From: Candidatus Micrarchaeota archaeon
Lineage (GTDB): Archaea; Micrarchaeota; Micrarchaeia; Micrarchaeales; CABMGC01
Direction of reading: 5' to 3'
Length of the DNA stretch: 64,000 nucleotides
Assembly: GCA_021802765.1 (NCBI GenBank)
Contig: JAJZRI010000002.1
Location: 91,348 to 155,347 of the forward strand
The position numbers and the translations under genes were made by a program. The notes under the pieces were generated by a model. The model searched no databases. It worked only from the letters and a program-made list of their open reading frames with translations, and had not been told where the DNA came from. Positions 1,098 through 53,464 of the stretch are shown piece by piece. Numbering within the stretch: position 1 is the first letter of the stretch; each line of letters begins with the position of its first letter.

Positions 1098-1168
1098 TGG
1101 AGGCACAGGGAATTGAACCCAGGCCCGCGCCGTGTAAAGGCGCTATCCTACCACTAGACGATGCCTCC
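1098..1168 (-). tRNA. tRNA-Val (anticodon UAC)
   Basis: The reverse complement reads GGAGGCA-TC-GTCT-AGTGGTA-GGAT-A-GCGCC-TTTACAC-GGCGC-GGGC-CTGGG-TTCAATT-CCCTG-TGCCTCC-A. This folds as a cloverleaf with a 7-bp acceptor stem, anticodon loop TT-TAC-AC and a TTCAATT T-loop. There is one U-U mismatch in the T stem. No CCA is encoded. The 5' end abuts the stop codon of the aminotransferase gene. Confidence 0.8.
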
Positions 1169-2501: not shown

Positions 2502-2924
2502 TTACTTTGCGCAGTTGCACTCCATGCACTGGCATCCTGCCATGTTGCCCATCATAGGTCCGTGCTTTGAGCCGAAAAATACAGCTAGGAATCCTATCAA
2601 TGTTGCAAGGAATAATGTTCCATTTGATGCCGTGAGTAATGCCAGTGTGAATCCGGCCATCATTGCCCTCTTCTTCACCATCCATCCGCCCATCCCCTTC
2701 AGGCTTCCGAAGAACACCGCAAGGCTGCTCAATACCGCTACTGCATAGAAGACGGTTGCGAACAGAGCGCTTCCGATCAATCCTCCAGTCCAGTTTATAG
2801 GAGACGAAGCAACGCCCCAAAGCTCCCATGCGACCGCGAGGAACAGAAGTCCTCCGAGTAGCTGCAGTACAGAAACGTTTGTGACATCCATCACATTTCC
2901 TTTTGTTGTAGTTGTCTTTGGCAT
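2502..2924 (-). CDS. membrane protein (about 4 TM) with Met/Cys-rich C-terminal tail
   Basis: 140 aa with four hydrophobic segments. The C-terminus is 'HGPMMGNMAGCQCMECNCAK'. The overlapping ORFs 2434..2829(-) and 2515..2748(+) look like frame shadows. Confidence 0.5.
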   Translation of the reverse strand: MPKTTTTKGNVMDVTNVSVLQLLGGLLFLAVAWELWGVASSPINWTGGLIGSALFATVFYAVAVLSSLAVFFGSLKGMGGWMVKKRAMMAGFTLALLTASNGTLFLATLIGFLAVFFGSKHGPMMGNMAGCQCMECNCAK

Positions 2925-3111
2925 ATATTCTACCTACATAATATTGGCTCCTTTCTCTTAATAAAGTTGACTGTCATGCATATTTTGATGTAGTTTTGCA
3001 TGAAAAATGCCTGTAAATAATTAATTCTAATATTATTTTAGTTATTCCAATATAGTTCTTACATATGGCAAAATTTGACAGTATGCTGGTGAAAATTGCA
3101 AAAAGACCCAC

Positions 3112-3119
3112 TTTATATA
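3112..3119 (+). promoter_or_regulatory. candidate archaeal TATA box (tttatata) for the GGDEF gene
   Basis: The TATA-like octamer ends 31 nt upstream of the ATG at 3151. That spacing fits a leaderless or short-leader archaeal transcript. Confidence 0.4.
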
Positions 3120-3150
3120 CCAGAAAATACACTATTATTGCAGATACTAT

Positions 3151-3801
3151 ATGGCACTATTCGGACCGTCAAAGAGAATACTCAAGAATGAATTGGCAGA
3201 GATGAGGATGCAAAGAGATGCCGCGTTGTCGCTTGCGCATGAGGATCCACTTACTGGATTGAATAACAGGAGGGCCCTTGATTTAGAGATCCATAAGCAT
3301 GAGAGCAGGCTAAAAAGAGAGGCCACAGAGAAAGTATATCGGGACGTCGCATTCATAGTAATCGATGTCAACAATCTAAAGCTGATAAACGACAATTACG
3401 GCCATGAAGCTGGAGACAGCATGATAATGGCAGTCGCCGGAGTGCTTAACGATCTTACAAGGCACGGAACAGATACCGTGGCAAGAACTGGAGGAGACGA
3501 ATTTGTAGTCGTGCTTCCTGTGGATGTTTCCCATTCAAATCCAATAATGGCATCACATTTCGCAACAAGAGTGGCTAATGTATTCGCAAACAGGGTAATT
3601 AACAACCTTGAGAAGATAACGGTAAGCGGAACCAACGAGCCCATTACAGTCTCACTTGGGGTCGCAACATACCATTCATCTGAGGATTCGATGCAGAAGG
3701 CACTTGCAATGGCGGATGCAAGGATGTACAACATGAAGAACTCGATGAAGGTTGATGGCAACAAGCCACACGATGCATTCTTCGAAGCGCACAGGAATTA
3801 A
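3151..3801 (+). CDS. GGDEF-domain diguanylate cyclase, stand-alone (short coiled N-terminus, no sensor domain)
   Basis: 216 aa carrying the full set of GGDEF hallmarks: 'DPLTGLNNRRAL', 'DVNNLKLINDNYGHEAGD', 'ARTGGDEFVVVLP', 'SLGVA' and 'ADARMYNMKN'. There is no RxxD I-site five residues upstream of GGDEF (sequence there is HGTDTVAR). Confidence 0.85.
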   Translation: MALFGPSKRILKNELAEMRMQRDAALSLAHEDPLTGLNNRRALDLEIHKHESRLKREATEKVYRDVAFIVIDVNNLKLINDNYGHEAGDSMIMAVAGVLNDLTRHGTDTVARTGGDEFVVVLPVDVSHSNPIMASHFATRVANVFANRVINNLEKITVSGTNEPITVSLGVATYHSSEDSMQKALAMADARMYNMKNSMKVDGNKPHDAFFEAHRN

Positions 3802-4280
3802 CCAATAATCTCTTAGTTTTTCCCAAATAATCTTCACATTCGTTTGCTGCTTCACATTTGCATTTGCAGGGCAGATTTTGGCTGGCTTATAATTACACTA
3901 AAAGAAAACGATGTGTTGTTTAAGGCTGGTTTCTGTGAGCGGTTTTTCCGAGGTAAAGCCTTGTTTTTCGCTCTTCCACTATTTTTCATGGACTGGAAAT
4001 ATGCGCCAAAGTGCGTTCCATATTTTTAATTTATTTTTCAGCACTTCCATAATACTGGCTCAAAAATTGCCCGCACGAATAAAACAATCTTTTCAGGCCT
4101 CTTTTGGCGCTCAATAGGGGTGGCATCACCAAAGACTGCCATCTTCCAAAAATCAGAAACAGGCAGCTTTAAGGAAATGCTTTTTCATTCTAAAAAAATG
4201 AAAGACAGCGATCTCATCAAATAAAAAGTATTTGTTTGAGTTTTATGGAATTATGTCGTATATGTCTTAGATCTCTTAGT

Positions 4281-4889
4281 TCAGATCAGATGATCTAGGT
4301 GATCTGCACTCCTGCGCAGTTCCTTGAGCGCTTCCTGGTCAAACTTCCGACTTATCTCCATGCTCTTGAGACGTAGAGGATCTATAATCTTGAATGTCCC
4401 ATCCGCATCGACCATTATGTTGGTATCGCTTATGTCCCCATGAGCTATTCCTTTTTCATGCAGAGTGTTAACCGCAGCTTCAACACCACGAACAATCATC
4501 ACATAATCAACGGCAAGCTGTTGATCCATAGCAGCCAAAGCCCCAGTATATACCTCCTTGAGAGTCTTGCCTTCTATGAACTCTGTCAGATAGCCAGCAA
4601 CATAGCCATAATCATTTGAAACCACCATTGCAACTGGAACTACTGTGTTTTGTGGAAGTGCGGCATATATTTCGCGCAGATTATTGAAGTCCCATTCCAC
4701 ATATTTTCCTGGATCGTCAGAAAGTTTGCCTATGAATGGCGCGTATATATCATAGAAATTCTTATTGCATTTAAAGAACAGGTTATTAAGTTCGTATCCG
4801 CGGCGTTTAAGACCTAAGAGGAGATCTGATCTATCCTTGGCCTTTATCCTAATCGGATCATCATTTAATGCGACTATCATAATCATCAT
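4281..4889 (-). CDS. minimal protein-kinase-like (Bud32/RIO/Kdo-kinase-like) protein, paralog 1
   Basis: 202 aa. Motifs: 'LKRRGYELNNLFFK' (shared N-terminal motif with candidate beta3 Lys), 'GYLTEFIEG' hinge, 'GIAHGDISDTNIMV' catalytic loop (HGDxxxxN) and 'KIIDP' metal-binding Asp. Confidence 0.6.
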   Translation of the reverse strand: MMIMIVALNDDPIRIKAKDRSDLLLGLKRRGYELNNLFFKCNKNFYDIYAPFIGKLSDDPGKYVEWDFNNLREIYAALPQNTVVPVAMVVSNDYGYVAGYLTEFIEGKTLKEVYTGALAAMDQQLAVDYVMIVRGVEAAVNTLHEKGIAHGDISDTNIMVDADGTFKIIDPLRLKSMEISRKFDQEALKELRRSADHLDHLI

Positions 4890-4953
4890 TGATTTTATAA
4901 TATCTAGATATTATAGCCAAACAAATTGAGAATTTCCAACAACATTTTGGTAT

Positions 4954-5688
4954 TCACTTCCTTTTGAGCGACCTTAATTCACTTTTAAGTATTCTATTTA
5001 TCTCTGTCTCAATATCTGCGGATCCAAAAATCTTTACAAGATCCTTTATGACATCGATTGTATCCGAGCGCATAATAATACCCAGTTCGCGCTCCGGATC
5101 AAAATCCTTGGATAGGCATTTTGCAATTGATATATTGTAGGAAACTGAATATACTGTATTTCTTACACTTGGCGCTTCTATTCTTCTAAATTCGCGCGCG
5201 ATATCCTTGACCTCATTCAAATAGCTGCCATATCCGTATATATAAATATATGAAAGAGAGCCAAGAACTGCCAAATATTCCTCTGCCTGCAAATATAGAT
5301 ACTCGCCCTGAAGGCTTGACATTTTATGCTGCAGGCCATTTAGCCACCTGAACCTGTGCATATTCTCATGTGCTATAACCTCACTTACCTTTAATCCGAA
5401 TCCGCCCTCCTTGGGACCAAATACGCCCTCGCTTACAAGATAGTCGAGCAGGTGACTTGATAGCCTGATTGTGTCTGGCGGGTTGTACACGCCAATCGTG
5501 CTTTGGCGGCCAAGGTCCGTTGCTATCATTATTTTTGGAAGATTGAGCTTTGTAGCCGAGAATCTGTTAAAGCAGGACGTAGACTCTATTATCTCTCCGC
5601 GTATTGCATCCCTAGCCCATTCGCTGTAGCCTGGATCAAACGAGCGCTGAATCCCTTTTACTGCCCTGTAGCTCATTTGCTGCTGCAT
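4954..5688 (-). CDS. HExxH-motif protein, putative zinc metallopeptidase
   Basis: 244 aa. A single 'VIAHENMHRF' HExxH motif is followed by acidic residues ('GEY', 'AEEY') 19-27 aa downstream. The gene sits inside the kinase-like array. Confidence 0.4.
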   Translation of the reverse strand: MQQQMSYRAVKGIQRSFDPGYSEWARDAIRGEIIESTSCFNRFSATKLNLPKIMIATDLGRQSTIGVYNPPDTIRLSSHLLDYLVSEGVFGPKEGGFGLKVSEVIAHENMHRFRWLNGLQHKMSSLQGEYLYLQAEEYLAVLGSLSYIYIYGYGSYLNEVKDIAREFRRIEAPSVRNTVYSVSYNISIAKCLSKDFDPERELGIIMRSDTIDVIKDLVKIFGSADIETEINRILKSELRSLKRK

Positions 5689-5765
5689 GAAAAAAACTTG
5701 CGATTTAGTGATATAATAACCTTTCTAGAATTTTCTGCTAAAAATTATTTAGACATTCTAAGAAT

Positions 5766-6560
5766 CTATTCTCCACGCTTTAGCTGCATTATCTCAGCCT
5801 TCATGCCTTTTATGGCTCCCTTGTCGTTTCTAATGTTTAGCTCCATGTTCTTTCCAAATCCGCGCCATCTTCTTATGGCCGGATTGAATAACACAAATCT
5901 TCCGTCGACTACCCTGACATTAACATAAAATGGGGCATACATGTAAAGGTCGAAATATTGGTGACCAAAGTTTCCGTGTCCAAGTCCAACGCTATTGAGC
6001 TTCTCTATGGCGCCTATGAATTCCTCCACTGCATTTATGTATGTCTTTGGAGTTACCCTGGATTGCCATTCCTCTGGAAACATCCTGCCCAGGTATTCCA
6101 TCAGGTAACCGCTACTTACTTCCCTAGTCTTCATGCTGAAATTACCGTTACGCGGGATTTTTTTGAGATTGGCTAGCTCAACTCTGGATACTGCAGCTAT
6201 GGGTGTTACAGAATGCTCCGGTATTACGGAATGAATCATATTGAGAAGTGAGAATTGCGAGCGCAGATCGACCAAGTTGACATTTGAGCAAGTATAATTA
6301 GCAGATATCCCTATTGAGGTGTTTAACTCTCCTGTCTCATATATGAAACGCATCTTTCCAAAATTATCCTCGAAAACGGGGTCTGGAATCTTGTATGTTT
6401 TAAGGAATACCTGATCTGGTTCAAATCCCCTCTGCTTTAACTTCCTAGGAAGATCATCTGCCCTTACCACAACAATCCTGTCTCTTTGAGTATCACACAG
6501 GTTCTCCCTGAACATTTCGGAAACCTGTTTTTTTATCAGTTTTTGCATATAAATAATCAC
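5766..6560 (-). CDS. kinase-like paralog 2, predicted catalytically dead (pseudokinase)
   Basis: 264 aa. It shares 'LKQRGFEPDQVFLK' and 'GYLMEYLG' with its neighbours. The catalytic loop is 'GLGHGNFGHQYF' (D->N, Asn lost) and the metal site is 'LFNP' (D->N). Confidence 0.5.
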   Translation of the reverse strand: MIIYMQKLIKKQVSEMFRENLCDTQRDRIVVVRADDLPRKLKQRGFEPDQVFLKTYKIPDPVFEDNFGKMRFIYETGELNTSIGISANYTCSNVNLVDLRSQFSLLNMIHSVIPEHSVTPIAAVSRVELANLKKIPRNGNFSMKTREVSSGYLMEYLGRMFPEEWQSRVTPKTYINAVEEFIGAIEKLNSVGLGHGNFGHQYFDLYMYAPFYVNVRVVDGRFVLFNPAIRRWRGFGKNMELNIRNDKGAIKGMKAEIMQLKRGE

Positions 6561-6584
6561 TTTTGCGACGACATAACTTCATTT

Positions 6585-7244
6585 TCAAGTGAATCCGCCA
6601 GATAGCGGTTCGAGGCATGCTCTGTCCGCTTCATAGCTCACGCTGCCTTTTAGCGTATCGTAAAATTTACGGTATTCTTCAATTGACATCCTGTCCATCT
6701 TGATTGCATCTTCGACGTCATACGCAGGATCAATCAACTGCACTGCTGCAGCTGCGCCTATGAATATGTTGTTGTACACCAAGAGATCGCCATGGCCGAC
6801 GCCTTTGGCGTTAAGTCTTGTGACGACGACATCAAGACTTTCTATGCCAAGCAGTATCATCTCCTTTGACTCGGTTTTTTCGACTTCGGTGCGTGCGGAA
6901 TGCGCATAATATTGCAGGAGGATTCCAAGGCTCTGCCCTCTGGCCCGCTCCATTACGTATCCCAGCACCTTTGCATTGGGTTCTTCACTCATTACCAGAG
7001 CAATTGGCCTGACAACGTGCCGGGGATCTGCGTCGTACATCCTGTATAAGTGTTTGTACTCTTCGACTATGCTGCCTTCAGTTCCAGGATGACACTTGGT
7101 AATGACTTCGTGGGTCTCGCCGCAATTATTGAATGTAATTTTTGAGTCTCTCTTGAAGAAGACAGTTTTAGGATCATGGCCCATGCTCTTCAGGGCAGAG
7201 TCTAGCCTTTCGCCGCTGTTAGCAGTTATTATTTTTCCCTTCAT
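6585..7244 (-). CDS. minimal protein-kinase-like protein, paralog 3
   Basis: 219 aa. Motifs: 'LKSMGHDPKTVFFKRD', 'VVRPIA', 'GYVMERARG', 'GVGHGDLLVYNNIFI' and 'QLIDP'. Confidence 0.6.
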   Translation of the reverse strand: MKGKIITANSGERLDSALKSMGHDPKTVFFKRDSKITFNNCGETHEVITKCHPGTEGSIVEEYKHLYRMYDADPRHVVRPIALVMSEEPNAKVLGYVMERARGQSLGILLQYYAHSARTEVEKTESKEMILLGIESLDVVVTRLNAKGVGHGDLLVYNNIFIGAAAAVQLIDPAYDVEDAIKMDRMSIEEYRKFYDTLKGSVSYEADRACLEPLSGGFT

Positions 7245-7271
7245 TTGGATCCCAATATTTCTTTATACTAA

Positions 7272-7880
7272 TCATTCCCTAAGTAACGACTTTACATGCT
7301 CTAGTTTCTTTTCGTAGGATGCAATCCTGATTACGTCATCCAATCTTGCGTCGTCAGAATCCATCACGTAAGGATCTATCAATTTTATCCTTCCACGTCT
7401 GTTTACTATTATATTGAAGTAATTCAAATCACCATGATACAGTCCCTTGTTATGCAGTCCGTTGACTGCTGAGATAAGGTCTTCGAGGGCAGATACGAAT
7501 TTGATCCTATTTCTCCTTATTTCCGCATTTGATTTTTCAGAGTAATATGAATCGTAATCAAGATAACCCAGTCCGTCACCATTCGCCGCTTCCATCACAA
7601 AACCGACGAAAAGAGCATTTTTGTGAGCACTGTTTTTAACCTCCGCAATTGGTCTTACCACGTGCACCGGATCCGCAGCATAAAGTGCAGATAGCTTAGT
7701 GTATTCCGAACGAGGCGTAGCGCTCTCGAAAAGGCCCCTGGTCTCACCCTCATATTCGAAGAATAGTCGCGGATCTCTCTTGAAGTATATTGTCTTTGGA
7801 TCGTAACCCATCTTTCTGAGCGCTTCGTCTACCTCTGCACCGTTCTTTGCGATTATGGGTTCTTTTTCAACGTATCGCAC
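7272..7880 (-). CDS. minimal protein-kinase-like protein, paralog 4
   Basis: 202 aa. Motifs: 'LRKMGYDPKTIYFKRD', 'VVRPIA', 'GFVMEAANG', 'GLYHGDLNYFNIIV' and 'KLIDP'. The GTG start overlaps the TAG stop of the upstream paralog by 1 nt (TAGTG). Confidence 0.6.
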   Translation of the reverse strand: MRYVEKEPIIAKNGAEVDEALRKMGYDPKTIYFKRDPRLFFEYEGETRGLFESATPRSEYTKLSALYAADPVHVVRPIAEVKNSAHKNALFVGFVMEAANGDGLGYLDYDSYYSEKSNAEIRRNRIKFVSALEDLISAVNGLHNKGLYHGDLNYFNIIVNRRGRIKLIDPYVMDSDDARLDDVIRIASYEKKLEHVKSLLRE

Positions 7881-8572
7881 TATGCACCACGCATTAATTT
7901 TTTAATTTCAATTTCCAGCTGAAGTTTCCTCATGTTGTCAATTTGGATGGCAAATTCCATATCTGTTTTTGGATCTTTGTGGAAAGCTGCAACCGCCGGA
8001 TCTATGAGCACGGCCCTTCCATCTGAAACCATCACATTGCATGGAAAGAAATCGCCGTGTGCGACGCTGTTTTCGTTGAGCGCATTTACCAGATCTATCG
8101 CTTGTTTTGCCATTGACACGAAAGTATCTAAGTAGTACTCCCAGCTGGGGCTATTGCGGTTTATTTTGAGTCTTTCTTGATAATAGGACAGCATGGTTCC
8201 TTCCACATATTCCATTAGATAACCGAAGTTACCATTTGCGCTTCTGTCTCCCTGAAAGAGTGGACGGGTGCCTTCGGGCAGCTTTAGTATTGCAATTGGC
8301 TTTACCGAATTGCTTGGAAGAATACTATGTATTACTTCGAGGTGCTCCATCTGACCATCTTCAAGTTCACCGAAGGACATAACTCCGCGTATTCCACGTG
8401 AAATAAACATGGCTCCTGATCCGCCCTGCTCGACTGATGTCGATCTACCTATGAACTTGGCGCTTCTGGCGCCTCGGGCAAGCTTGAGGAAGACCTCGTC
8501 GGCATTGTAGCCTAACTCATTAAGCTGACCTGAAAGTTCCCTGATGTTTTTTGATTCTATTGTCAATACCAT
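7880..8572 (-). CDS. minimal protein-kinase-like protein, paralog 5
   Basis: 230 aa. Motifs: 'LNELGYNADEVFLK', Gly-rich 'VEQGGSGAMF', 'VKPIA', 'GYLMEYVEG', 'SVAHGDFFPCNVMV' and 'VLIDP'. An SD-like GGGAGTGAT lies just upstream of the ATG. Confidence 0.6.
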   Translation of the reverse strand: MVLTIESKNIRELSGQLNELGYNADEVFLKLARGARSAKFIGRSTSVEQGGSGAMFISRGIRGVMSFGELEDGQMEHLEVIHSILPSNSVKPIAILKLPEGTRPLFQGDRSANGNFGYLMEYVEGTMLSYYQERLKINRNSPSWEYYLDTFVSMAKQAIDLVNALNENSVAHGDFFPCNVMVSDGRAVLIDPAVAAFHKDPKTDMEFAIQIDNMRKLQLEIEIKKLMRGA

Positions 8573-8576
8573 TATA

Positions 8577-9254
8577 TCACTCCCTTAGGCAGATCTCCAT
8601 CGCGTTGAGAATGTCCATCTCGTAGACATCTATGTTCTGCCGGTCCGAATCCATCGCGCTTCTCAGGCTGCCCTTGTGCATCGGATCTATGAATATCGGC
8701 TTGCTTCCCGATACAAGAATGTTCTCATAGTGCGCATCTCCGTGCGCCACGCCGTTCAAATTGAATGTTCTGAGCACGTCTATAGCCTTGGAGACAAGTT
8801 TCACGTAATGACCTACCTTGTTTGGGTTTGTTGTCATTTCAAGCTTGATTTTGTAATCGAAAATTCCCACCCCCTCGACGAGCTCTATCACGTATGCCAT
8901 CTTCCTCACGCCATTTGCATTGGGTTCCCTCATGAAGACCTCTGCCACAGGTTTAACGACATTTTCTGGGGCTATTGCATGAAGCCGGGATAGAAGCATC
9001 ATCTCATACGGATCAAGCCCCCCATAGTACGTGCTGGTTGTGGTGCCCTCCACGCCGCTAGAGGTCAGGAATATATTTCCATATTTATCAATTACCTGAT
9101 TGAGGAAATGTGAATTAAGGTCTCTGTTGCATTCGCCTATCTTCACAAATAACTGATCTGGAGAGTATTTCGGGAGCTGCCTTAACATGTCATTTATGTC
9201 CTCGCAGACAAGCTTTTGCACTTTGGTTTGTGGCATTTTTGTGGCGACACCCAT
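8577..9254 (-). CDS. minimal protein-kinase-like protein, paralog 6
   Basis: 225 aa. Motifs: 'PKYSPDQLFVK', 'VVKPVA', 'AYVIELVEG', 'GVAHGDAHYENILV' and 'IFIDP'. The ATG overlaps the TGA of the upstream ORF (TGATG). Confidence 0.6.
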   Translation of the reverse strand: MGVATKMPQTKVQKLVCEDINDMLRQLPKYSPDQLFVKIGECNRDLNSHFLNQVIDKYGNIFLTSSGVEGTTTSTYYGGLDPYEMMLLSRLHAIAPENVVKPVAEVFMREPNANGVRKMAYVIELVEGVGIFDYKIKLEMTTNPNKVGHYVKLVSKAIDVLRTFNLNGVAHGDAHYENILVSGSKPIFIDPMHKGSLRSAMDSDRQNIDVYEMDILNAMEICLRE

Positions 9255-18370: not shown

Positions 18371-19690
18371 TCACGGCTTGAGTCTAACGCGATCCCTTGG
18401 GAACATGCAACATTCCCTTATGTTCTGCATCCCGGTCATCTTCATTGTGAGCCTTTCAAGCCCAAGGCTCCATCCGGCATGTGGAGGGGCCCCCCTCTTG
18501 AAGGCATTTATGTAGAAATCAAAGTCACTTGGATTCAGGCCACGTTCTGTTATCGACTTTACAAGCACTTCAGGAATGTGTATCCTCTGGGCGCCGCTAG
18601 ATACCTCGAGCCCCTTGAAGAGAAGGTCAAAGCTGTTGCAGACCTGTCCGTCCTTTTCGTTTGGCATACTATAAAACGCCCTTACGCTCCTAGGGTACTC
18701 CTTTACAAGAACAAGGTCTCCTAGGAGCCTGCAGAGTGCATCCTCCTGTTCCCTGTTGAAATCCTCTCCAAATTCCATCTTCTGACCGTTGGCGTTCAAA
18801 AGTGATATCGCCTTCTTGTAGGTTATCTCCTTGACTATCGGTTTGCTTAATGTTACGTTCAGACGCTTGAGGTCATCCCCGTTCTTCTTCGAGACGTCGT
18901 TTATTATATTCTTGACTGCTTTCTTTAGCAGTTTCATTGCGTCGTTGTGGTCTGCAAACCCCAGTTCGGCGTCCATCTGCGTTATCTCGTTGAGATGAAA
19001 CACCGTATTGTGCTTTTCCGCCCTGAAGACTGGAACGACCATGAAGACCCGATCCATACCTCCGATCACAGCGAGCTGCTTGTAGAGCTGCGGCGATTGT
19101 GCAAGAAATGCCTTCTTCTCGAAGTATTCCACTTGGAAGAGGTCTGCGCCGCCTTCTGTGGCAGCTTCCACCAAAGCAGGAGTCCTTATCTCCGTAAGCC
19201 CCTCCTTTAGCATAGTGTTCCTAAAAGAGTTGAGAATTGTTGACTGTATGTTGAATATTGAAGTTGTCTCAAGTCTCCTAAGGTCAATATATCTGTTATC
19301 AAGCCGTACGTCTATGTCTGCTGGAACTTTTCCAGTTACCTCGAAAGGTATGCCCGCCTCTAGTGGATTAAGATTCTTTATCTCTGAGGGCACTATCTCA
19401 AATCCTAGCCTGCTCTCTGTGCTCTTTCTTACCTTCCCCCTGATCATAACAACGCTCTCCTTGGGCAGGTTCATTGAGGATATCACTTCTGTTGGTGTTA
19501 TCCCCTCCTTTCCTATCACCTGCACTATGCCGCTGTGGTCCCTTAGGAGTATGAAGACTATCTTGCCTATATTCCTGACCTCATGGACCCATCCTCCGAG
19601 AGTGACCTCGGCACCGTCCATCTCTGGACTTAGCTGTGCAATGTAATGGGTCCTATATGCGCTTGACAAAACAACACCGGATATTATCAC
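18371..19690 (-). CDS. aspS: aspartyl-tRNA synthetase, archaeal/eukaryal type
   Basis: 439 aa, class IIb. Motifs: 'FRAEKHNTVFHLNEITQMDAE' and 'GAPPHAGWSLGLERL'. There is no GAD insertion. Confidence 0.85.
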   Translation of the reverse strand: MIISGVVLSSAYRTHYIAQLSPEMDGAEVTLGGWVHEVRNIGKIVFILLRDHSGIVQVIGKEGITPTEVISSMNLPKESVVMIRGKVRKSTESRLGFEIVPSEIKNLNPLEAGIPFEVTGKVPADIDVRLDNRYIDLRRLETTSIFNIQSTILNSFRNTMLKEGLTEIRTPALVEAATEGGADLFQVEYFEKKAFLAQSPQLYKQLAVIGGMDRVFMVVPVFRAEKHNTVFHLNEITQMDAELGFADHNDAMKLLKKAVKNIINDVSKKNGDDLKRLNVTLSKPIVKEITYKKAISLLNANGQKMEFGEDFNREQEDALCRLLGDLVLVKEYPRSVRAFYSMPNEKDGQVCNSFDLLFKGLEVSSGAQRIHIPEVLVKSITERGLNPSDFDFYINAFKRGAPPHAGWSLGLERLTMKMTGMQNIRECCMFPRDRVRLKP

Positions 19691-23035: not shown

Positions 23036-23875
23036 GGGGGGTTGACATCTACATACAACCACCATCGTCAACGCTCATGACACATCACATCAAATAAGTC
23101 ATGAGGTATGCAATCAGGCACGAATAGATGCGAATTGACACCTTTTTCATACCCATGAACCTGTTCTTTGAAAGACCAAATACTTCTTTCAGTCTTGGAA
23201 AAAATCCTCTCTATTGCGCATCTTTTCACATATTCAGGATCCTTCGGAGTTTCTGGCTTTCTATGTCCTCTTCCATTTATTGCAATAACATCTTTTATTC
23301 TGTGATAATGCAGATATTCGTGTATGTCGGTAGAGTCATACGCAGAGTCTCCTAGATATTTTGTACCAAACGCAAGTCGGAATTTCCTATTCACCTGCCC
23401 TATCAATTCACCGAAGAAAATCTTATCGTTCCTGTTTCCAGGTGCAATATAGAACCCTATCGTAACCTCATTTTCTGCATCTGCAATTGCATGAAGTTTA
23501 TATCCGAAGAACATGTCATTCACATTTCCATCTGCATCTTCTTGTTCCCTCTTCGATGGGATTCTATGCCCAGTTCTCGCATACTTGTCCATGCGCGAAA
23601 ATGCGGGCACGTCAGTACTGCCCTGTGCTATTAGCCGTATTTGCCTTCCGTTAAGTCTATCCTGTAGGATCCAGTTGTTCAGTTCTTCGAATATTTCTGG
23701 TTCTGCACGTTTTCTGACCTTAGAGAAGATGGAATAATCGGGCCTTTTCCTGTAACCAATTATTCTTCCAATCTTCGTACCGACGATATCCACGAGTTCT
23801 ACATCGGTCAATCGAAAAGAGAACCATGCATTTAAGGTAATATTGATTAGAAAGATTTAAGATTTGTCAAGTCCC
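23036..23875 (-). mobile_element. small IS5-family-like insertion sequence (about 840 bp)
   Basis: The imperfect terminal inverted repeats are GGGGGGGTTGACA (23036-) and TGTCAAGTCCC (-23875). TAG occurs immediately outside both ends (23033-23035 and 23876-23878). A single DDE transposase ORF fills the element. Confidence 0.6.
23068..23811 (-). CDS. DDE transposase, IS4/IS5 superfamily
   Basis: 247 aa. Motifs: 'FGYKLHAIADAENEV', 'YLGDSAYDSTDIHEYL' and 'RCAIERIFSK', typical of DDE_Tnp_1 transposases. Confidence 0.75.
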   Translation of the reverse strand: MTDVELVDIVGTKIGRIIGYRKRPDYSIFSKVRKRAEPEIFEELNNWILQDRLNGRQIRLIAQGSTDVPAFSRMDKYARTGHRIPSKREQEDADGNVNDMFFGYKLHAIADAENEVTIGFYIAPGNRNDKIFFGELIGQVNRKFRLAFGTKYLGDSAYDSTDIHEYLHYHRIKDVIAINGRGHRKPETPKDPEYVKRCAIERIFSKTERSIWSFKEQVHGYEKGVNSHLFVPDCIPHDLFDVMCHER

Positions 23876-31742: not shown

Positions 31743-33229
31743 ACTCCAGTCGATGCTGCTGGAGGATACTGCTATCAGATTTCGACAGCCATGCAAGTCA
31801 GCTCAACGGCCTCGTTGGGCGGCGTACGGCTCAGTAACGCGTGGTCAATCTACCGCAGAGAGGGGGATAACCTTGGGAAACTGAGGCTAACACCACATAG
31901 GTTAGGGACTCTGGAAAGAATCCTAATTTAAAAAGTTGCAAATTGCAGCATTACTGCTCTGCGATGAGACTGCGTCGGATCAGGCAGATGGCGGGGTAAC
32001 GGCCCACCATACCTTTGACCCGTATGGGATATGAGAGTAAGAGCCCAGAGAAGGGCACTGAGACAATGGCCCTAGTGCTACGGCATGCAGCAGGCGCGCA
32101 AACTCCACAATGCACATACGTGTGATGGGGGGAATCTGAGTGGTTGACTTCGGTTAACCTTTTGCCAAGTTTAGCAAGCTTGGAGAATAAGTGCTGGGTA
32201 AGACCGGTGGCAGCCGCCACGGTAATACCGGCGGCACAAGTGGTATTCACAATTATTGGGCTTAAAGCGTTAGTAGCCGGCTGAAACAGTCTTGTGTGAA
32301 ATGTCGGTGCATGACATCGACACGTGCATAGGATACCTTTCGGCTAGGGAGTGGGAGAGGTCAGGAGTATTCATGGGGTAAGGGTAAAATCTCGTAATCC
32401 TATGAAGACTACCGGTGGCGAAGGCGCCTGACCAGAACATATCCGACGGTGAGTGACGAAGGCCAGGAGAACGAATCGGATTAGATACCCGAGTAGCCCT
32501 GGCAGTAAATGATGCAGACTCTGGTGTTGCGTTTATCACGAATAAATGCAGTACCGTAGGACAACTGTTAAGTCTGCCGCCTGGGGAGTACGGCCGCAAG
32601 GTTGAAACTTAAAGCAATTGGCGGGGGAGCACACAAGGGGTGGATGCTACGGTTCAATTGAATTCAACGTCGGGAACTTTACCTGGAGCGACGGCAGTGT
32701 GAAGGTCAGACTAATGATCTTGCCTGACAAGCCGAGAGGTGGTGCATGGCGATCGTCAGTTCGTGGTGTGAACTCTCCGGTTAAGTCCGGTAACGAACGA
32801 GATCCTCGTTGACAGTTGCTACTGGTCCAGAGATGGGCTAGGCACTCTGTCGAGACCGCCTACGTTTAAGTAGGAGGAAGGAGAGGGCGACGGTACGTCA
32901 GTATGCCCCGAATCTCCAGGGCTACACGCGGCATACAGAGGTTGGTACAATGGGTCGCTACCCAGAGATGGGACGCTAATCCCCTAAAACCAATCTAGGT
33001 CTGAATTGAGGGTTGAAACTCACCCTCATGAAACTGGAATCCCTAGTAATCGCGTGTCACCAACGCGCGGTGAATATGTCCCCGCTCCTTGCACACACCG
33101 CCTGCCAAGTCATCCAAGTGGGGCCTTAGTGACGCAGCATCCTCGTGATGCTTTCGAACTAAGGTTCCGTGAGGGGGGCTAAGGCATAACAAGGTATCCG
33201 TAGGGGAACCTGTGGATAGATCACCTCAA
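31743..33229 (+). rRNA. 16S (SSU) ribosomal RNA, archaeal, divergent
   Basis: The 5' end 'TCCAGTCGATGCTGCTGGAGGATACTGCTATCAG' corresponds to the archaeal TCCGGTTGATCCTGCCGGAGG... start. Recognisable internal blocks include GGTGGCAGCCGCCACGGTAATACCGGC, GGATTAGATACCCG, TTAAAGCAATTGGCGGGGGAGCAC and TGCACACACCGCC. The 3' end is GTAGGGGAACCTGTGGATAGATCACCTCA. At about 1487 nt, no intron is indicated. Confidence 0.9.
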
Positions 33230-39750: not shown

Positions 39751-41529
39751 TTACTGTTCCTTGAATTCAAGGCCGTAGTCGTTCTTGAGCCTCTTTGCAT
39801 CTATCTTCGTGGGCGAAAGGTCCACTGCAGACTCGAATCTCTTGTTCTTCGGAAAGAGTATGAAGTCGCGTATGTTGTCCGCACCGCCGAGTAGTGCGCA
39901 TATCCTATCAAGACCCAGGCCCATTCCCCCTTCCACCGGAGTGCCGTAGGATAGGGCCTCTATGAAAAATCCGAAGTTCTTCTCTATCAGATCATCGTCC
40001 ATGCCGAACATCTTCATTATCTTCCTCTGCAGTTTTGGATCATTTATCCTTATGGCGCCGCTGCCAAGCTCGGTGCCGTTGAGCACTAGATCATACTGCC
40101 TTCCTACTACCTTCTCCGGAGCATTATCAAGGAACCCTATAGTAGATTCTGTGGGGCAGGTGAACGGATTGTGAGCCGGAACAGCCTTCCCAGAGACCTC
40201 ATTTATCTCAAATAGCGGGAACTCTTCAACCCACAGGAATGAGTACTCGGAGTTGTACACTCCGATCTTGTCTCCCATAGTCTTCCTTATCCTTCCAAGG
40301 GCGTCAAGGAGTATCTTCTCGGAGAGGTCTGCGCCTATGACTATGATATCACCATCCTTGGCGTCAAGCTTCTTTCTTATTGAATCTTCGCAGTTCTTGA
40401 GGGACTCGGCTATGCTTTCGGGCTCCGAATGTATCGCTCCATCTTTCACATAAAGCCAAGTCAGGCCGCGCAGGCCGAAAAGCTTGGCAAGATCTATCAT
40501 CCTGAGCATGTAGTTCTTGTCAAGCCTTGCAGAACCTGTACCGAACTGGGCATCAAAGGATATGGCTTTTATGTGGCCGCTGGTGTCAGCAACGCGCCTT
40601 AGTATGTTATACTGGGTATTTGCGAGCTCCTTGGTTATGTCTATTATCTTATTGTCGAACCTAAGATCGGGCTTGTCGCTTCCATACATCCTTACCGCAT
40701 CAACGTATTTCATCCTTGCAAAAGGCGTCTTGAGCGGCTTTGATAAGACCTCCTTGAACACTCTTGTGAACATGCGCTCGACTGTCTCCTGTATGTAACG
40801 TTCATCCTTAAATGAGACCTCGAAATCTATCTGTGTGTGCTCAAGCTGCCTGTCCTCCCTTGGATCCTCGTCCCTGAAACATCGCGCTATCTGGAAGTAC
40901 CTGTCAACTCCGGCTACCATCAATATTTGCTTGTATATTTGCGGGGATTGCGCAAGCGCGTAGAAGCTGCCCTTGGATATCCTTGAGGGCACGAGAAGGG
41001 TTCTTGAGCCTGTCTCGTAGTTGTCCTTGACCAAATAGGGAGTCTCAAGCTCTAGGAAACTGTTCTCCCAGAAGAATTTTCTAACTGTCTTAGTTATCCT
41101 ATCCCTGAAGAGAACATTTGCCATCATGCCCTTTCTTCTCAGGTCCAGATACCGGTATTTTAACCTGAGATCCTCGTTTGCAAGGAACTTCTCCTTCTCT
41201 TCTATGAGTTCGAACGGCGGCACGGCGGATTGGCTTATCACATCGATTGAGTTTACGTAAAGTTCCACCTTGCCAGTAGGATTCGCAGAGTCTATCGTGT
41301 CTGGCGCTCTCTTCTCAACAGTTCCGTTTACAGATATAACAAATTCTTTCCCGAGTCTGTCTGCCTTTTCCTTTGCCTCTTTCTCAAAGACGAGCTGGGT
41401 TGAACCGTGCATGTCGGAAAGATCTATGAACAGCTTTCCTCCGTGGTCCCGTATGTACCTGCACCAGCCCTGAAGTGTGACCTCTTTGCCTATGTGCTCC
41501 TCGCTTATGGCGCCGCAGTTAAGCTCCAT
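39751..41529 (-). CDS. aspS: aspartyl-tRNA synthetase, bacterial type (with GAD insertion domain)
   Basis: 592 aa. Motifs: 'YFQIARCFRDEDPREDRQLEHTQIDFEVSF' and 'GTPVEGGMGLGLDRI'. The length and the about 130-aa insertion between motifs 2 and 3 are characteristic of bacterial AspRS. Confidence 0.85.
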   Translation of the reverse strand: MELNCGAISEEHIGKEVTLQGWCRYIRDHGGKLFIDLSDMHGSTQLVFEKEAKEKADRLGKEFVISVNGTVEKRAPDTIDSANPTGKVELYVNSIDVISQSAVPPFELIEEKEKFLANEDLRLKYRYLDLRRKGMMANVLFRDRITKTVRKFFWENSFLELETPYLVKDNYETGSRTLLVPSRISKGSFYALAQSPQIYKQILMVAGVDRYFQIARCFRDEDPREDRQLEHTQIDFEVSFKDERYIQETVERMFTRVFKEVLSKPLKTPFARMKYVDAVRMYGSDKPDLRFDNKIIDITKELANTQYNILRRVADTSGHIKAISFDAQFGTGSARLDKNYMLRMIDLAKLFGLRGLTWLYVKDGAIHSEPESIAESLKNCEDSIRKKLDAKDGDIIVIGADLSEKILLDALGRIRKTMGDKIGVYNSEYSFLWVEEFPLFEINEVSGKAVPAHNPFTCPTESTIGFLDNAPEKVVGRQYDLVLNGTELGSGAIRINDPKLQRKIMKMFGMDDDLIEKNFGFFIEALSYGTPVEGGMGLGLDRICALLGGADNIRDFILFPKNKRFESAVDLSPTKIDAKRLKNDYGLEFKEQ

Positions 41530-52156: not shown

Positions 52157-53464
52157 TTATGGTTCAAGGCGATTGGACATCCTTGGAAATGGTATTGCAT
52201 CGCGTATGTGGTCCAAATTCAATAGCCATTTTATTACGCGCTCTATTCCCAGACCAAAGCCCGAGTGCGGAGCCGAGCCATATCGCCTTAAGTCTATCCA
52301 CCACTGGTAATTATCCATGTTGAACTTGATGCCCTTTTGCATCTCTACCTCCTTCATCCTTGAAAGCAGTTTGTCTAGCTCCCATATCCTTTCGCTGCCC
52401 CCAATTATCTCTCCGTGACCATGAGGTGCTTGCATGTCCGAGCAGAGAACAGTGCGCTCGTCTTTAGGATTTATCGGCATATAAAACGGCTTTATCTCTT
52501 TTGGCCAGTTGTAGACAAACAGCGGCTTGTCCTCTGCTTCAGTAAGGGCCTTTTCATGCTCCACTCCGAAGTCGTCGCCCCATTTTAACTGGAATCCCTT
52601 TTCATTCAGAAGACCCAAGGCCTCCTCGTAGCTAAGTCTCTTGAACGGAGGACGTATCCTGCTCAAATCATCTCCGTTGATTTGAAGTTCCTTGAGTAGG
52701 TCTTGATTATTTGATGCGAGCCTGGTGGCTATGTGCGAAACCAGCCTTTCTTGCAGCGCCATGCTCTTTTTGTTGTCGAAGTAGAGCATCTCTGGCTCAA
52801 GGTGCCAGTACTCTGCAAGATGTTTTGTCGTCCTTGAGTTCTCTGCCCTGAAAGATGGTGCGAATGAATAAACTTTTTCAAGTGGGAAAGCCATTGCCTC
52901 GGCATAGAGCTGCGATGATTCGGTAAGATATGCCTTTGACCCGAAGAAGTCAGTCTCAAAGAGATTTGCACCAGTCTCACCTGCAGCCTTTGTCAATATT
53001 GGAGGGGTTATCTCGAAGAATCCGCTCTTGTCAAGGAACTCTCGTGCATACCTGAAAACATACGACCTTGCCTTCATTACTGAAATCATCTTCTGGCTCC
53101 TAAGCCATAAGTGCCGCTTATCAAGAAGGAGCTCTGTACTCTGGTACTCGGTTATCGGAAACGGCTCTGACAGCGCAGTGTTCCTAAAATCAGTAGCAGT
53201 AAGTTCATAGCCTGTCGGAGACCTAGGATCCTGCTTGATTGTTCCAGATATGCTAACATTTGATTCTATTGTGGAAGACAACGCAGCATTCCAGGCATCG
53301 GCGCTGATGGCATCCTTTTTTATTGCTACCTGCACCAGACCCGAAACGTCCCTTAGCACAACAAATATGATACCGCCACTCTGCCTCTTCCTGTGAATCC
53401 ATCCAGACAGGACCACGTTCTTTCCAGGTGACTTTACCGCGTCAGATATGTGGATTGTGCGCAT
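52157..53464 (-). CDS. asnS: asparaginyl-tRNA synthetase
   Basis: 435 aa, class IIb. Motifs: 'FRAENSRTTKHLAEYWHLEPEM' and 'GSAPHSGFGLGIERV'. Confidence 0.8.
   Translation of the reverse strand: MRTIHISDAVKSPGKNVVLSGWIHRKRQSGGIIFVVLRDVSGLVQVAIKKDAISADAWNAALSSTIESNVSISGTIKQDPRSPTGYELTATDFRNTALSEPFPITEYQSTELLLDKRHLWLRSQKMISVMKARSYVFRYAREFLDKSGFFEITPPILTKAAGETGANLFETDFFGSKAYLTESSQLYAEAMAFPLEKVYSFAPSFRAENSRTTKHLAEYWHLEPEMLYFDNKKSMALQERLVSHIATRLASNNQDLLKELQINGDDLSRIRPPFKRLSYEEALGLLNEKGFQLKWGDDFGVEHEKALTEAEDKPLFVYNWPKEIKPFYMPINPKDERTVLCSDMQAPHGHGEIIGGSERIWELDKLLSRMKEVEMQKGIKFNMDNYQWWIDLRRYGSAPHSGFGLGIERVIKWLLNLDHIRDAIPFPRMSNRLEP

Follow-up and report, generated by a model that had tools for sequence, protein, structure and literature searches.

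Can an archaeal cell make cyclic di-GMP (c-di-GMP)? This question is raised by a gene for a stand-alone GGDEF protein near the start of a 64,000-nt stretch of DNA from a Candidatus Micrarchaeota archaeon (assembly GCA_021802765.1, contig JAJZRI010000002.1, positions 91,348 to 155,347 of the forward strand; hereafter the window), and it can be put directly to the test, since a soluble protein of 216 aa is easy to express. We are highly confident that the gene is resident in a Micrarchaeota (DPANN) genome and encodes an intact catalytic domain. The best explanation of the locus as a whole, which we regard as probable, is a host-adapted Micrarchaeota gene for a minimal diguanylate cyclase that is dimerised through its N-terminal helix.

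GGDEF proteins have been assigned to Archaea before. Galperin et al. (2018, PMC5847659) knew of one archaeal GGDEF protein, Methanocella arvoryzae CAJ37382, and flagged a receiver (REC) domain joined to an inactivated GGDEF domain in two 'Ca. Micrarchaeum acidiphilum' genomes as a possible contaminant. More than 300 GGDEF BLAST matches in archaeal metagenome-assembled genomes (MAGs), many of them from DPANN and Asgard lineages, were mentioned without analysis by Braun et al. (2021, PMC8646023), and Römling (2022, PMC10086821) asked for archaeal GGDEF proteins to be confirmed on contigs that are themselves archaeal. An earlier, sequence-only reading of the window had called GGDEF proteins very rare in Archaea; this has to be toned down in view of the matches reported from MAGs (PMC8646023). 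The Methanocella and Micrarchaeum proteins are, like the window protein, GGDEF proteins assigned to Archaea, and the latter comes from the same phylum. By description, however, the Micrarchaeum protein stands apart: it combines a receiver with an inactivated GGDEF domain, was found in two genomes and had its origin left open, whereas the window protein is stand-alone, has an intact site and lies on an archaeal contig. GGDEF domains in DPANN and Asgard MAGs had already been noticed, none of them validated, and the present gene is one more of a known kind, marked by a minimal architecture, a modified inhibitory site (I-site) and an unexpected two-type polymorphism. The locus confirms a GGDEF gene for one archaeal lineage, intact, under selection, host-adapted and behind a native-type promoter on a 16S-bearing Micrarchaeota contig, and provides a concrete candidate for asking whether any archaeon uses c-di-GMP.

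A stand-alone GGDEF protein with intact catalytic motifs

The gene and the relevant parts of its product are the following.

3151 to 3801, plus strand: coding sequence of the stand-alone GGDEF protein, 216 aa (Pfam and NCBIfam matches; exact protein on 9 contigs; ratio of nonsynonymous to synonymous substitution rates, dN/dS, 0.07-0.11)
3163 to 3240, plus strand: N-terminal helix, aa 5-30, a putative dimerising coiled-coil stalk (AlphaFold2 (AF2) model, structural matches)
3235 to 3747, plus strand: GGDEF catalytic domain, aa 29-199 (Pfam PF00990, 49-sequence alignment)
3460 to 3474, plus strand: modified I-site R104-H-G-T-D108, RxxxD and not RxxD (alignment)
3490 to 3504, plus strand: GGDEF active-site motif, aa 114-118 (translation, alignment)

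Profile, motifs and fold all place the protein in the GGDEF family. The Pfam scan matched PF00990 to aa 29-199 (E 3.1e-34, 118.5 bits, cut-off 23.8) and returned no sensor, receiver or transmembrane domain, while the NCBIfam scan gave TIGR00254 (110 bits, cut-off 37.4) and no named equivalog model at or above its own cut-off. The exact 216-aa protein is annotated by JGI as 'diguanylate cyclase (GGDEF)-like protein'. PF22335, the Cas10 palm model, reached 19 bits, below its cut-off of 27, and no cas genes lie nearby.

All five catalytic motifs that the sequence-only reading had described as intact were read from the translation, and their residues were confirmed by alignment: DPLTGLNNRR (aa 32-41), DVNNLKLINDNYGHEAGD (aa 72-89), RTGGDEF (aa 112-118), SLGVA (aa 168-172) and ADARMYNMK (aa 188-196). 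In an alignment of 49 sequences that included diverse GGDEF proteins, the columns of D32, T35, N39, D72, N80, G84, G88, R112, G114, G115, E117, G170, D189 and K196 were 100% conserved, and those of K77, H85, D89, F118 and Y193 were near-invariant. The metal-binding Asp D72 is matched by D in 45/45 comparison sequences and the transition-state Lys K77 by K in 44/45; the guanine-contacting residues N80 (45/45) and D89 (44/45) are kept, as is the phosphate-binding K196 (45/45). At conserved positions we take the PleD equivalents to be D327, K332, N335, H340, D344, R366, GGEEF and K442, presumably with the same roles as metal-binding Asp, two guanine contacts, the Arg before GGDEF together with the motif itself, and phosphate-binding Lys. 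With this complete set of catalytic residues, the product is a putative diguanylate cyclase.

The AF2 model (mean pLDDT 86.6, pTM 0.82) consists of a helix at residues 5-30 followed by a GGDEF fold, in agreement with the earlier description of a helical N-terminus with no sensor, receiver or transmembrane domain. When the model was compared with the PDB using Foldseek, the top 50 matches were all diguanylate cyclases or GGDEF-domain proteins (probability 1.00, E about 1e-14 to 1e-11, target-normalised TM-score up to 0.87). The best full-length matches were constructs in which a coiled coil precedes the GGDEF domain, namely Caulobacter DgcB 6ttr (TMq 0.74), P. aeruginosa SiaD 7e6g and the engineered GCN4-zipper-WspR fusion 3i5c. 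They have the fold in common with the model (E about 1e-13, TMq 0.63-0.74), whose helix 5-30 can be superimposed on the DgcB coiled coil and on the SiaD stalk. Bacterial cyclases of this stalk-plus-GGDEF kind have the catalytic, metal-binding and guanine-binding residues in common with the window protein, and helix-mediated pairing is a likely shared principle of activation. In contrast to them, the window protein has an archaeal host and promoter, carries no sensor, receiver or membrane anchor upstream of the helix, has an RxxxD I-site and MKNSMK in place of AKxxGRN, and is only 24-31% identical in sequence.

Residence of the gene in a Micrarchaeota genome

A bacterial contaminant or a chimeric metagenome join would also bring a GGDEF gene into such a contig. 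The same concern was raised for the GGDEF contigs assigned to Micrarchaeum (Galperin et al. 2018, PMC5847659), and all named non-orthologous relatives of the window protein are bacterial. The exact 216-aa protein, however, was found on nine contigs, and in the six shown, which are independent assemblies from four sources (Logan, NCBI, ENA and JGI), the neighbours were constant: an aminotransferase gene, a gene for a 140-aa membrane protein, the GGDEF gene and a kinase-like array. The same gene context surrounds three orthologues (92, 87 and 76% identity), of which the 87% one (P0002) is found on a 28.6-kb contig with UbiA and LonB genes. We refer to the window protein and these three orthologues as type A, and to a more distant relative at the same locus, described below, as type B.

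The contig itself is archaeal. A complete gene matching SSU_rRNA_archaea (31743-33229, plus strand, 1347 bits) lies on it at a distance of 28 kb from the GGDEF gene; this 16S rRNA gene is isolated, with no adjacent 23S rRNA gene in the window. Domain scans identified archaeal genes for Alba, a LonB with Lon_C only, MJ0043_C, a CarS-like CDP-archaeol synthase and FEN1, and Pfam scans further found ribosomal proteins S15 and S3Ae and DUF373, among others. Named FEN1 homologues at 60-64% identity were almost all labelled 'Candidatus Micrarchaeota / Micrarchaeales / Micrarchaeia archaeon', with one match at 71% labelled Marsarchaeota. Among GTDB species genomes, a close orthologue of the GGDEF protein (92%) occurs in just one, likewise a 'Candidatus Micrarchaeota archaeon' MAG. 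In composition, the GGDEF gene is typical of window genes (GC 0.459, GC at third codon positions 0.493, codon-usage rank 46/56), and its promoter resembles those of other genes in the window. Repeated synteny, orthologues in context, an archaeal contig and host-like composition together effectively exclude contamination or chimerism, which we consider refuted for practical purposes, and they bear out the earlier claim that the gene belongs to the host.

In addition, the gene is maintained. Among the four type-A genes, dN/dS was 0.07-0.11 at synonymous divergences (dS) of 0.48 to >1.5 (Nei-Gojobori), with values of 0.05-0.08 for the GGDEF domain and 0.13-0.28 for the N-terminal helix. The protein is kept by strong purifying selection across diverged lineages.

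A conserved archaeal-type promoter

Three elements, all upstream of the coding sequence, make up the predicted promoter.

3087 to 3104, plus strand: invariant upstream block TGGTGAAAATTGCAAAAA, a possible element like the transcription factor B recognition element (BRE) or a regulator site (identical in the four type-A loci and the type-B locus)
3112 to 3119, plus strand: TATA box TTTATATA (invariant in all loci)
3120 to 3130, plus strand: conserved promoter-proximal block CCAGAAAATAC, where types A and B lose homology (locus alignment)

The TATA box TTTATATA starts 39 nt before the ATG, with 31 nt between box and start codon. As a plain 8-mer it is not rare, with 8 matches in the window against 3.4 expected, and it is made credible by conservation, shared geometry and an extended motif rather than by the 8-mer alone. 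The four orthologue loci do not differ at any of the bases 3087-3104, 3107-3123 (which include the TATA box) and 3125-3130, despite the saturation of synonymous sites between some of these loci. The type-B locus keeps most of these invariant bases, and its similarity ends a few bases earlier. In eight other open reading frames (ORFs) of the window, a TATA-like 8-mer begins 38-42 nt upstream of the start codon. The extended motif TTWAWATANNAGRAAAT has four matches against 0.16 expected, at window positions 3112, 13030 and 20674 on the plus strand and 51254 on the minus strand, each 38-39 nt before the start of an ORF and on the correct strand. Since this motif was chosen post hoc from the same sites, the count is partly circular, but the positional agreement is not, and TTWAWATANNAGRAAAT may be a local promoter consensus of the organism.

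The invariance of the box and its flanks in four loci and the shared geometry at eight other genes uphold the earlier proposal of an archaeal-type promoter with a TATA box 31 nt before the ATG, and the GGDEF gene is, as judged from sequence conservation, placed behind a conserved archaeal promoter of the TATA type. Archaeal TATA boxes are centred about 26-27 nt before the transcription start site. Given this general spacing and the position of the box, transcription would be expected to start near 3141-3145, some 7-10 nt upstream of the ATG, which would yield a leaderless mRNA or one with a very short leader of ≤10 nt and no Shine-Dalgarno sequence.

Inhibitory site, predicted product and signalling partners

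The canonical product-inhibition motif RxxD lies five residues before GG[D/E]EF in 36 of 42 other GGDEF sequences. At this spacing the four type-A proteins instead read HGTD, with an Arg directly before it (R104-H-G-T-D108), and both R104 and D108 fall in the Arg and Asp columns of the I-site (40/45 other GGDEF sequences each). A one-residue insertion is common to all four type-A orthologues. The sequence-only reading had described RxxD as lacking; this is right for the canonical spacing, but the site is not simply absent, having become RxxxD through the insertion. As defined by spacing, the protein falls outside the product-inhibited RxxD class. A short bacterial GGDEF protein, P0395, carries a similar RHHYD at the I-site position.

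With regard to the product, conservation of both N80 and D89, which are also kept in type B, would be expected to confer guanine specificity and to exclude the Hypr subclass, which makes cyclic GMP-AMP (cGAMP); the Asp at position 89, in place of Ser, likewise argues for specificity towards GTP. We lean towards c-di-GMP as the physiological product. An alternative is an active cyclase of GGDEF fold whose main product is something else, be it a mixed or adenine-containing cyclic dinucleotide or linear pppGpG, or a protein that acts as a GTP-binding regulator. Hypr GGDEF enzymes show cGAMP synthesis to be within the reach of this fold (PMC10249747, citing Hallberg 2016). In the window protein the phosphate-binding motif at the C-terminal end is off consensus (MKNSMK), the clade sits on a long branch with at most 43% identity to anything else, and no partners of c-di-GMP signalling were seen. 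Nevertheless, all five members of the family have N80 and D89, the Hypr-defining Ser is missing, and the metal-binding and GGDEF residues are canonical, so that we judge a different main product to be improbable.

The search for partners covered the window. Domain scans of the window proteins examined, with a few ORFs of <100 aa outside the scans, found no EAL, HD-GYP or PilZ domain, as the sequence-only reading had reported, and no c-di-GMP riboswitch was found in the 64 kb.

Distribution of the family and a second type at the same locus

Relatives of the GGDEF protein are few. A word-indexed search of 5.8 billion clusters returned three orthologue clusters (92, 87 and 76% identity), after which matches that span most of the query did not exceed 37%, and a HMMER search of 1.84 billion representatives returned the query's own cluster followed by matches of about 43% or less. 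Across the two collections, the only specific relatives were P0001, P0002, P0003 and P0209, and a profile of both types recovered five members (309-437 bits) before dropping to 110 bits. In contrast, relatives of the FEN1 encoded in the window form an unbroken series between 97% and 60% identity, which argues that the GGDEF gene is confined to a narrow sub-clade. Two further candidates for archaeal types, P0394 and P0395, were rejected, as they lack a clade-specific segment (see below) and P0395 lies in a bacterial context. The latter protein (196 aa), whose contig also carries YqeY and RmuC genes, has the same layout of helix and GGDEF domain, a similar length and the I-site sequence mentioned above, but it is 35% identical and has neither the HSNPxMAxxFA segment nor the conserved C-terminal tail.

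P0209, which represents type B, is a protein of 211 aa with 36% identity to the window protein (BLASTP) and was the best single-domain match of the exhaustive search. It is encoded on a 1480-bp ENA contig (L096) that represents the same locus, with L096 1-1480 corresponding to window 2528-3138 and beyond. The first 610 nt of this contig, comprising the membrane-protein gene and the promoter, match the P0002 locus at 97% and the window at 90% identity. Similarity between the two types breaks off about 9 nt past the TATA box and returns, at 82-85%, in an Ada-like gene downstream; of the coding sequences between, only a 64-nt patch can be aligned. P0209 keeps all catalytic residues and carries the clade-specific segment HSNPxMAxxFA, which together identify it as a true relative. 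It differs from type A in a canonical RATD, a 12-residue insertion before GGDEF, the lack of a C-terminal tail and an N-terminal helix that is shorter by exactly seven residues, or one heptad. The heptad-sized difference would fit a coiled-coil stalk whose register matters. For a signalling enzyme, this apparent exchange of a cassette within an almost identical background is unusual, with type B represented by a single short contig.

The site is occupied differently in an outgroup. Contig L094, on which the aminotransferase is 70% identical, has the membrane-protein gene, a conserved non-coding element and the kinase-like gene, and at the syntenic site, where the GGDEF gene would be expected, it carries three unrelated ORFs that match no Pfam family. 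This indicates that the gene was either gained in the sub-clade or replaced in the L094 lineage, as one outgroup cannot polarise the change. In a scan of GTDB, 79 loci from bacteria matched at 29-39% identity; they belong to Campylobacterota, Bacillota, Gammaproteobacteria, Spirochaetota, Planctomycetota and further groups. With matches this scattered, and with none beyond about 43% in the exhaustive HMMER search, neither search singles out a bacterial clade as the donor. The IMG/VR search returned only distant matches, 26-38% over most of the protein length, and no viral carrier.

This pattern of variation suggests another explanation, in which the protein is the signal generator of a conflict or symbiosis module, serving anti-virus defence, competition between strains or interaction with a host cell rather than a bacterial-style housekeeping circuit, and in which its nucleotide product could act on an effector possibly encoded nearby or in a partner organism. 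The gene occupies a variable slot that holds three unrelated ORFs in L094, and the adjoining Ada-like gene is present or absent between strains. Two types, 36% identical, share this slot within 97%-identical flanks, a pattern common for conflict genes; the adjoining tandem array encodes divergent kinase-like paralogues with weak matches to defence-kinase profiles, and no phosphodiesterase or receptor gene was seen in the window. Yet the GGDEF protein matched none of the PADLOC defence families at E ≤0.01, no effector is fused to it or shares an operon with it, the gene being monocistronic and convergent with its neighbours, and it has no close relative on viral contigs in IMG/VR. Within type A it is under strong purifying selection, the kinase matches reflect generic similarity of the kinase fold, and the synteny comparison covered close relatives only and is hence silent on functional linkage. 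A conflict module is unlikely on this evidence. Somewhat more doubtful still is a combined version, in which the locus encodes the first natively working synthase of the c-di-GMP type in an archaeon and is a rapidly exchanged, lineage-specific module for the interaction of an episymbiont with its host, competitors or viruses; if true, two types at one locus would mean balancing or diversifying selection on that interaction.

A proposed helix-dimerised minimal cyclase

The reading we prefer, that of a minimal diguanylate cyclase native to Micrarchaeota, can be set out as follows. A coiled-coil-type stalk helix of ~26 residues appears to be fused directly to a catalytically complete GGDEF domain. 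Subunits would pair via their N-terminal helices, thereby bringing two GTP-loaded domains together to form c-di-GMP. The RxxxD insertion may weaken or change product inhibition, and, given the lack of a sensor domain and the altered I-site, output would be set mainly by the level of expression or by a partner protein. The ultimate origin of the gene is probably bacterial. The ancestor of a narrow Micrarchaeota sub-clade would have acquired it, at a variable site flanked by the gene for a small membrane protein and the kinase-like array, and two divergent types, recombining as a cassette, would have arisen since.

Several points weigh against this reading. The AKxxGRN region reads MKNSMK, with its G and N replaced by M and V, and the position equivalent to PleD R446 is occupied by K200 (R in 30/45 and K in 9/45 comparison sequences), although Lys at this phosphate-contact Arg position is a conservative change. 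Dimerisation through the helix is proposed solely on the basis of similar structures. The outgroup is represented by a single contig, and its lack of the gene could reflect loss and not gain. As neither EAL, HD-GYP and PilZ genes nor a riboswitch were found in the 64-kb window, a complete c-di-GMP circuit is not demonstrated, and c-di-GMP had not been detected in any archaeon according to the literature up to 2023 (PMC10249747, PMC8646023). The absence of partners from the window and the two-type polymorphism raise the question of what role such a signal would have in a symbiont with a reduced genome.

Downstream spacer and neighbouring genes

Two features were distinguished in the region that follows the GGDEF gene.

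3802 to 3822, plus strand: single copy of a 21-nt repeat, CCAATAATCTCTTAGTTTTTC, which marks a ~380-bp deletion (locus comparison)
3940 to 4209, no strand assigned: conserved non-coding element linked to the end of the kinase-like array (outgroup comparison)

In the P0001, P0002 and P0209 loci, a convergent gene for a 98-aa Ada_Zn_binding protein directly follows the GGDEF gene. In L092 (P0001) and L089 (P0002) this Ada-like gene is flanked by two copies of the 21-nt direct repeat CCAATAATCTCYTAGTTTTTC. Comparison of L089 4307-4700 and L092 3542-3940 with window 3802-3822 revealed that a clean deletion of ~380 bp removed the gene from the window and left one copy of the repeat. The element at 3940-4209 is 73% identical to L094 over 272 nt without indels, which makes it the best-conserved DNA between the window and this outgroup, above the flanking genes, and it remains linked to the end of the kinase-like array rather than to the GGDEF gene. 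The sequence-only reading had seen here a gene-free spacer of 480 bp across which the GGDEF gene converges on kinase-like genes; the convergence is confirmed, but the spacer is made up of a deletion scar and a conserved element.

A protein gene in the spacer was considered, as the plus-strand frame is open in three relatives, and was rejected for want of codon periodicity and because of a stop in the window copy. A known RNA was also considered, but the Rfam search of the spacer at E ≤1 gave only a spurious snoRNA match. Consensus folding of the element with four sequences gave z-scores of -2.5 and -1.25, a weak signal of RNA structure.

The kinase-like tandem array occupies window 4281-9254 on the minus strand, possibly extending to 11025, and is followed by further unassigned ORFs. 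It consists of at least six related small ORFs of 200-264 aa with 22-40% mutual identity, which gave only weak matches to protein kinase, Bud32, RIO and Kdo profiles. On the other side of the GGDEF gene, and divergent from its promoter, lies the gene for the predicted 140-aa membrane protein (2502-2924, minus strand). This protein has a Cys-rich C-terminus (CQCMECNC) and falls into no family of Pfam or NCBIfam; its conservation extends to the outgroup, where the GGDEF gene is missing.

Beyond it, a tRNA-Val gene (1098-1168, minus strand) abuts the aminotransferase gene in the window. In the P0002 lineage, a phage-integrase gene (L089 362-1168) lies beyond the aminotransferase, at the place of the window's tRNA-Val, which suggests an integration hot spot beside, but not including, the GGDEF gene. 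Elsewhere, the window contains a DDE_Tnp_1 transposase gene of the IS4/IS5 type (23068-23811, minus strand). Finally, three genes for class-II aminoacyl-tRNA synthetases of the Asp/Asn/Lys type are found within the 64 kb, all on the minus strand (39751-41529, 18371-19690 and 52157-53464), one of which carries a GAD domain and adjoins GatB and GatA. Since the GAD domain is typical of bacterial-type AspRS, this gene may be another bacterial acquisition.

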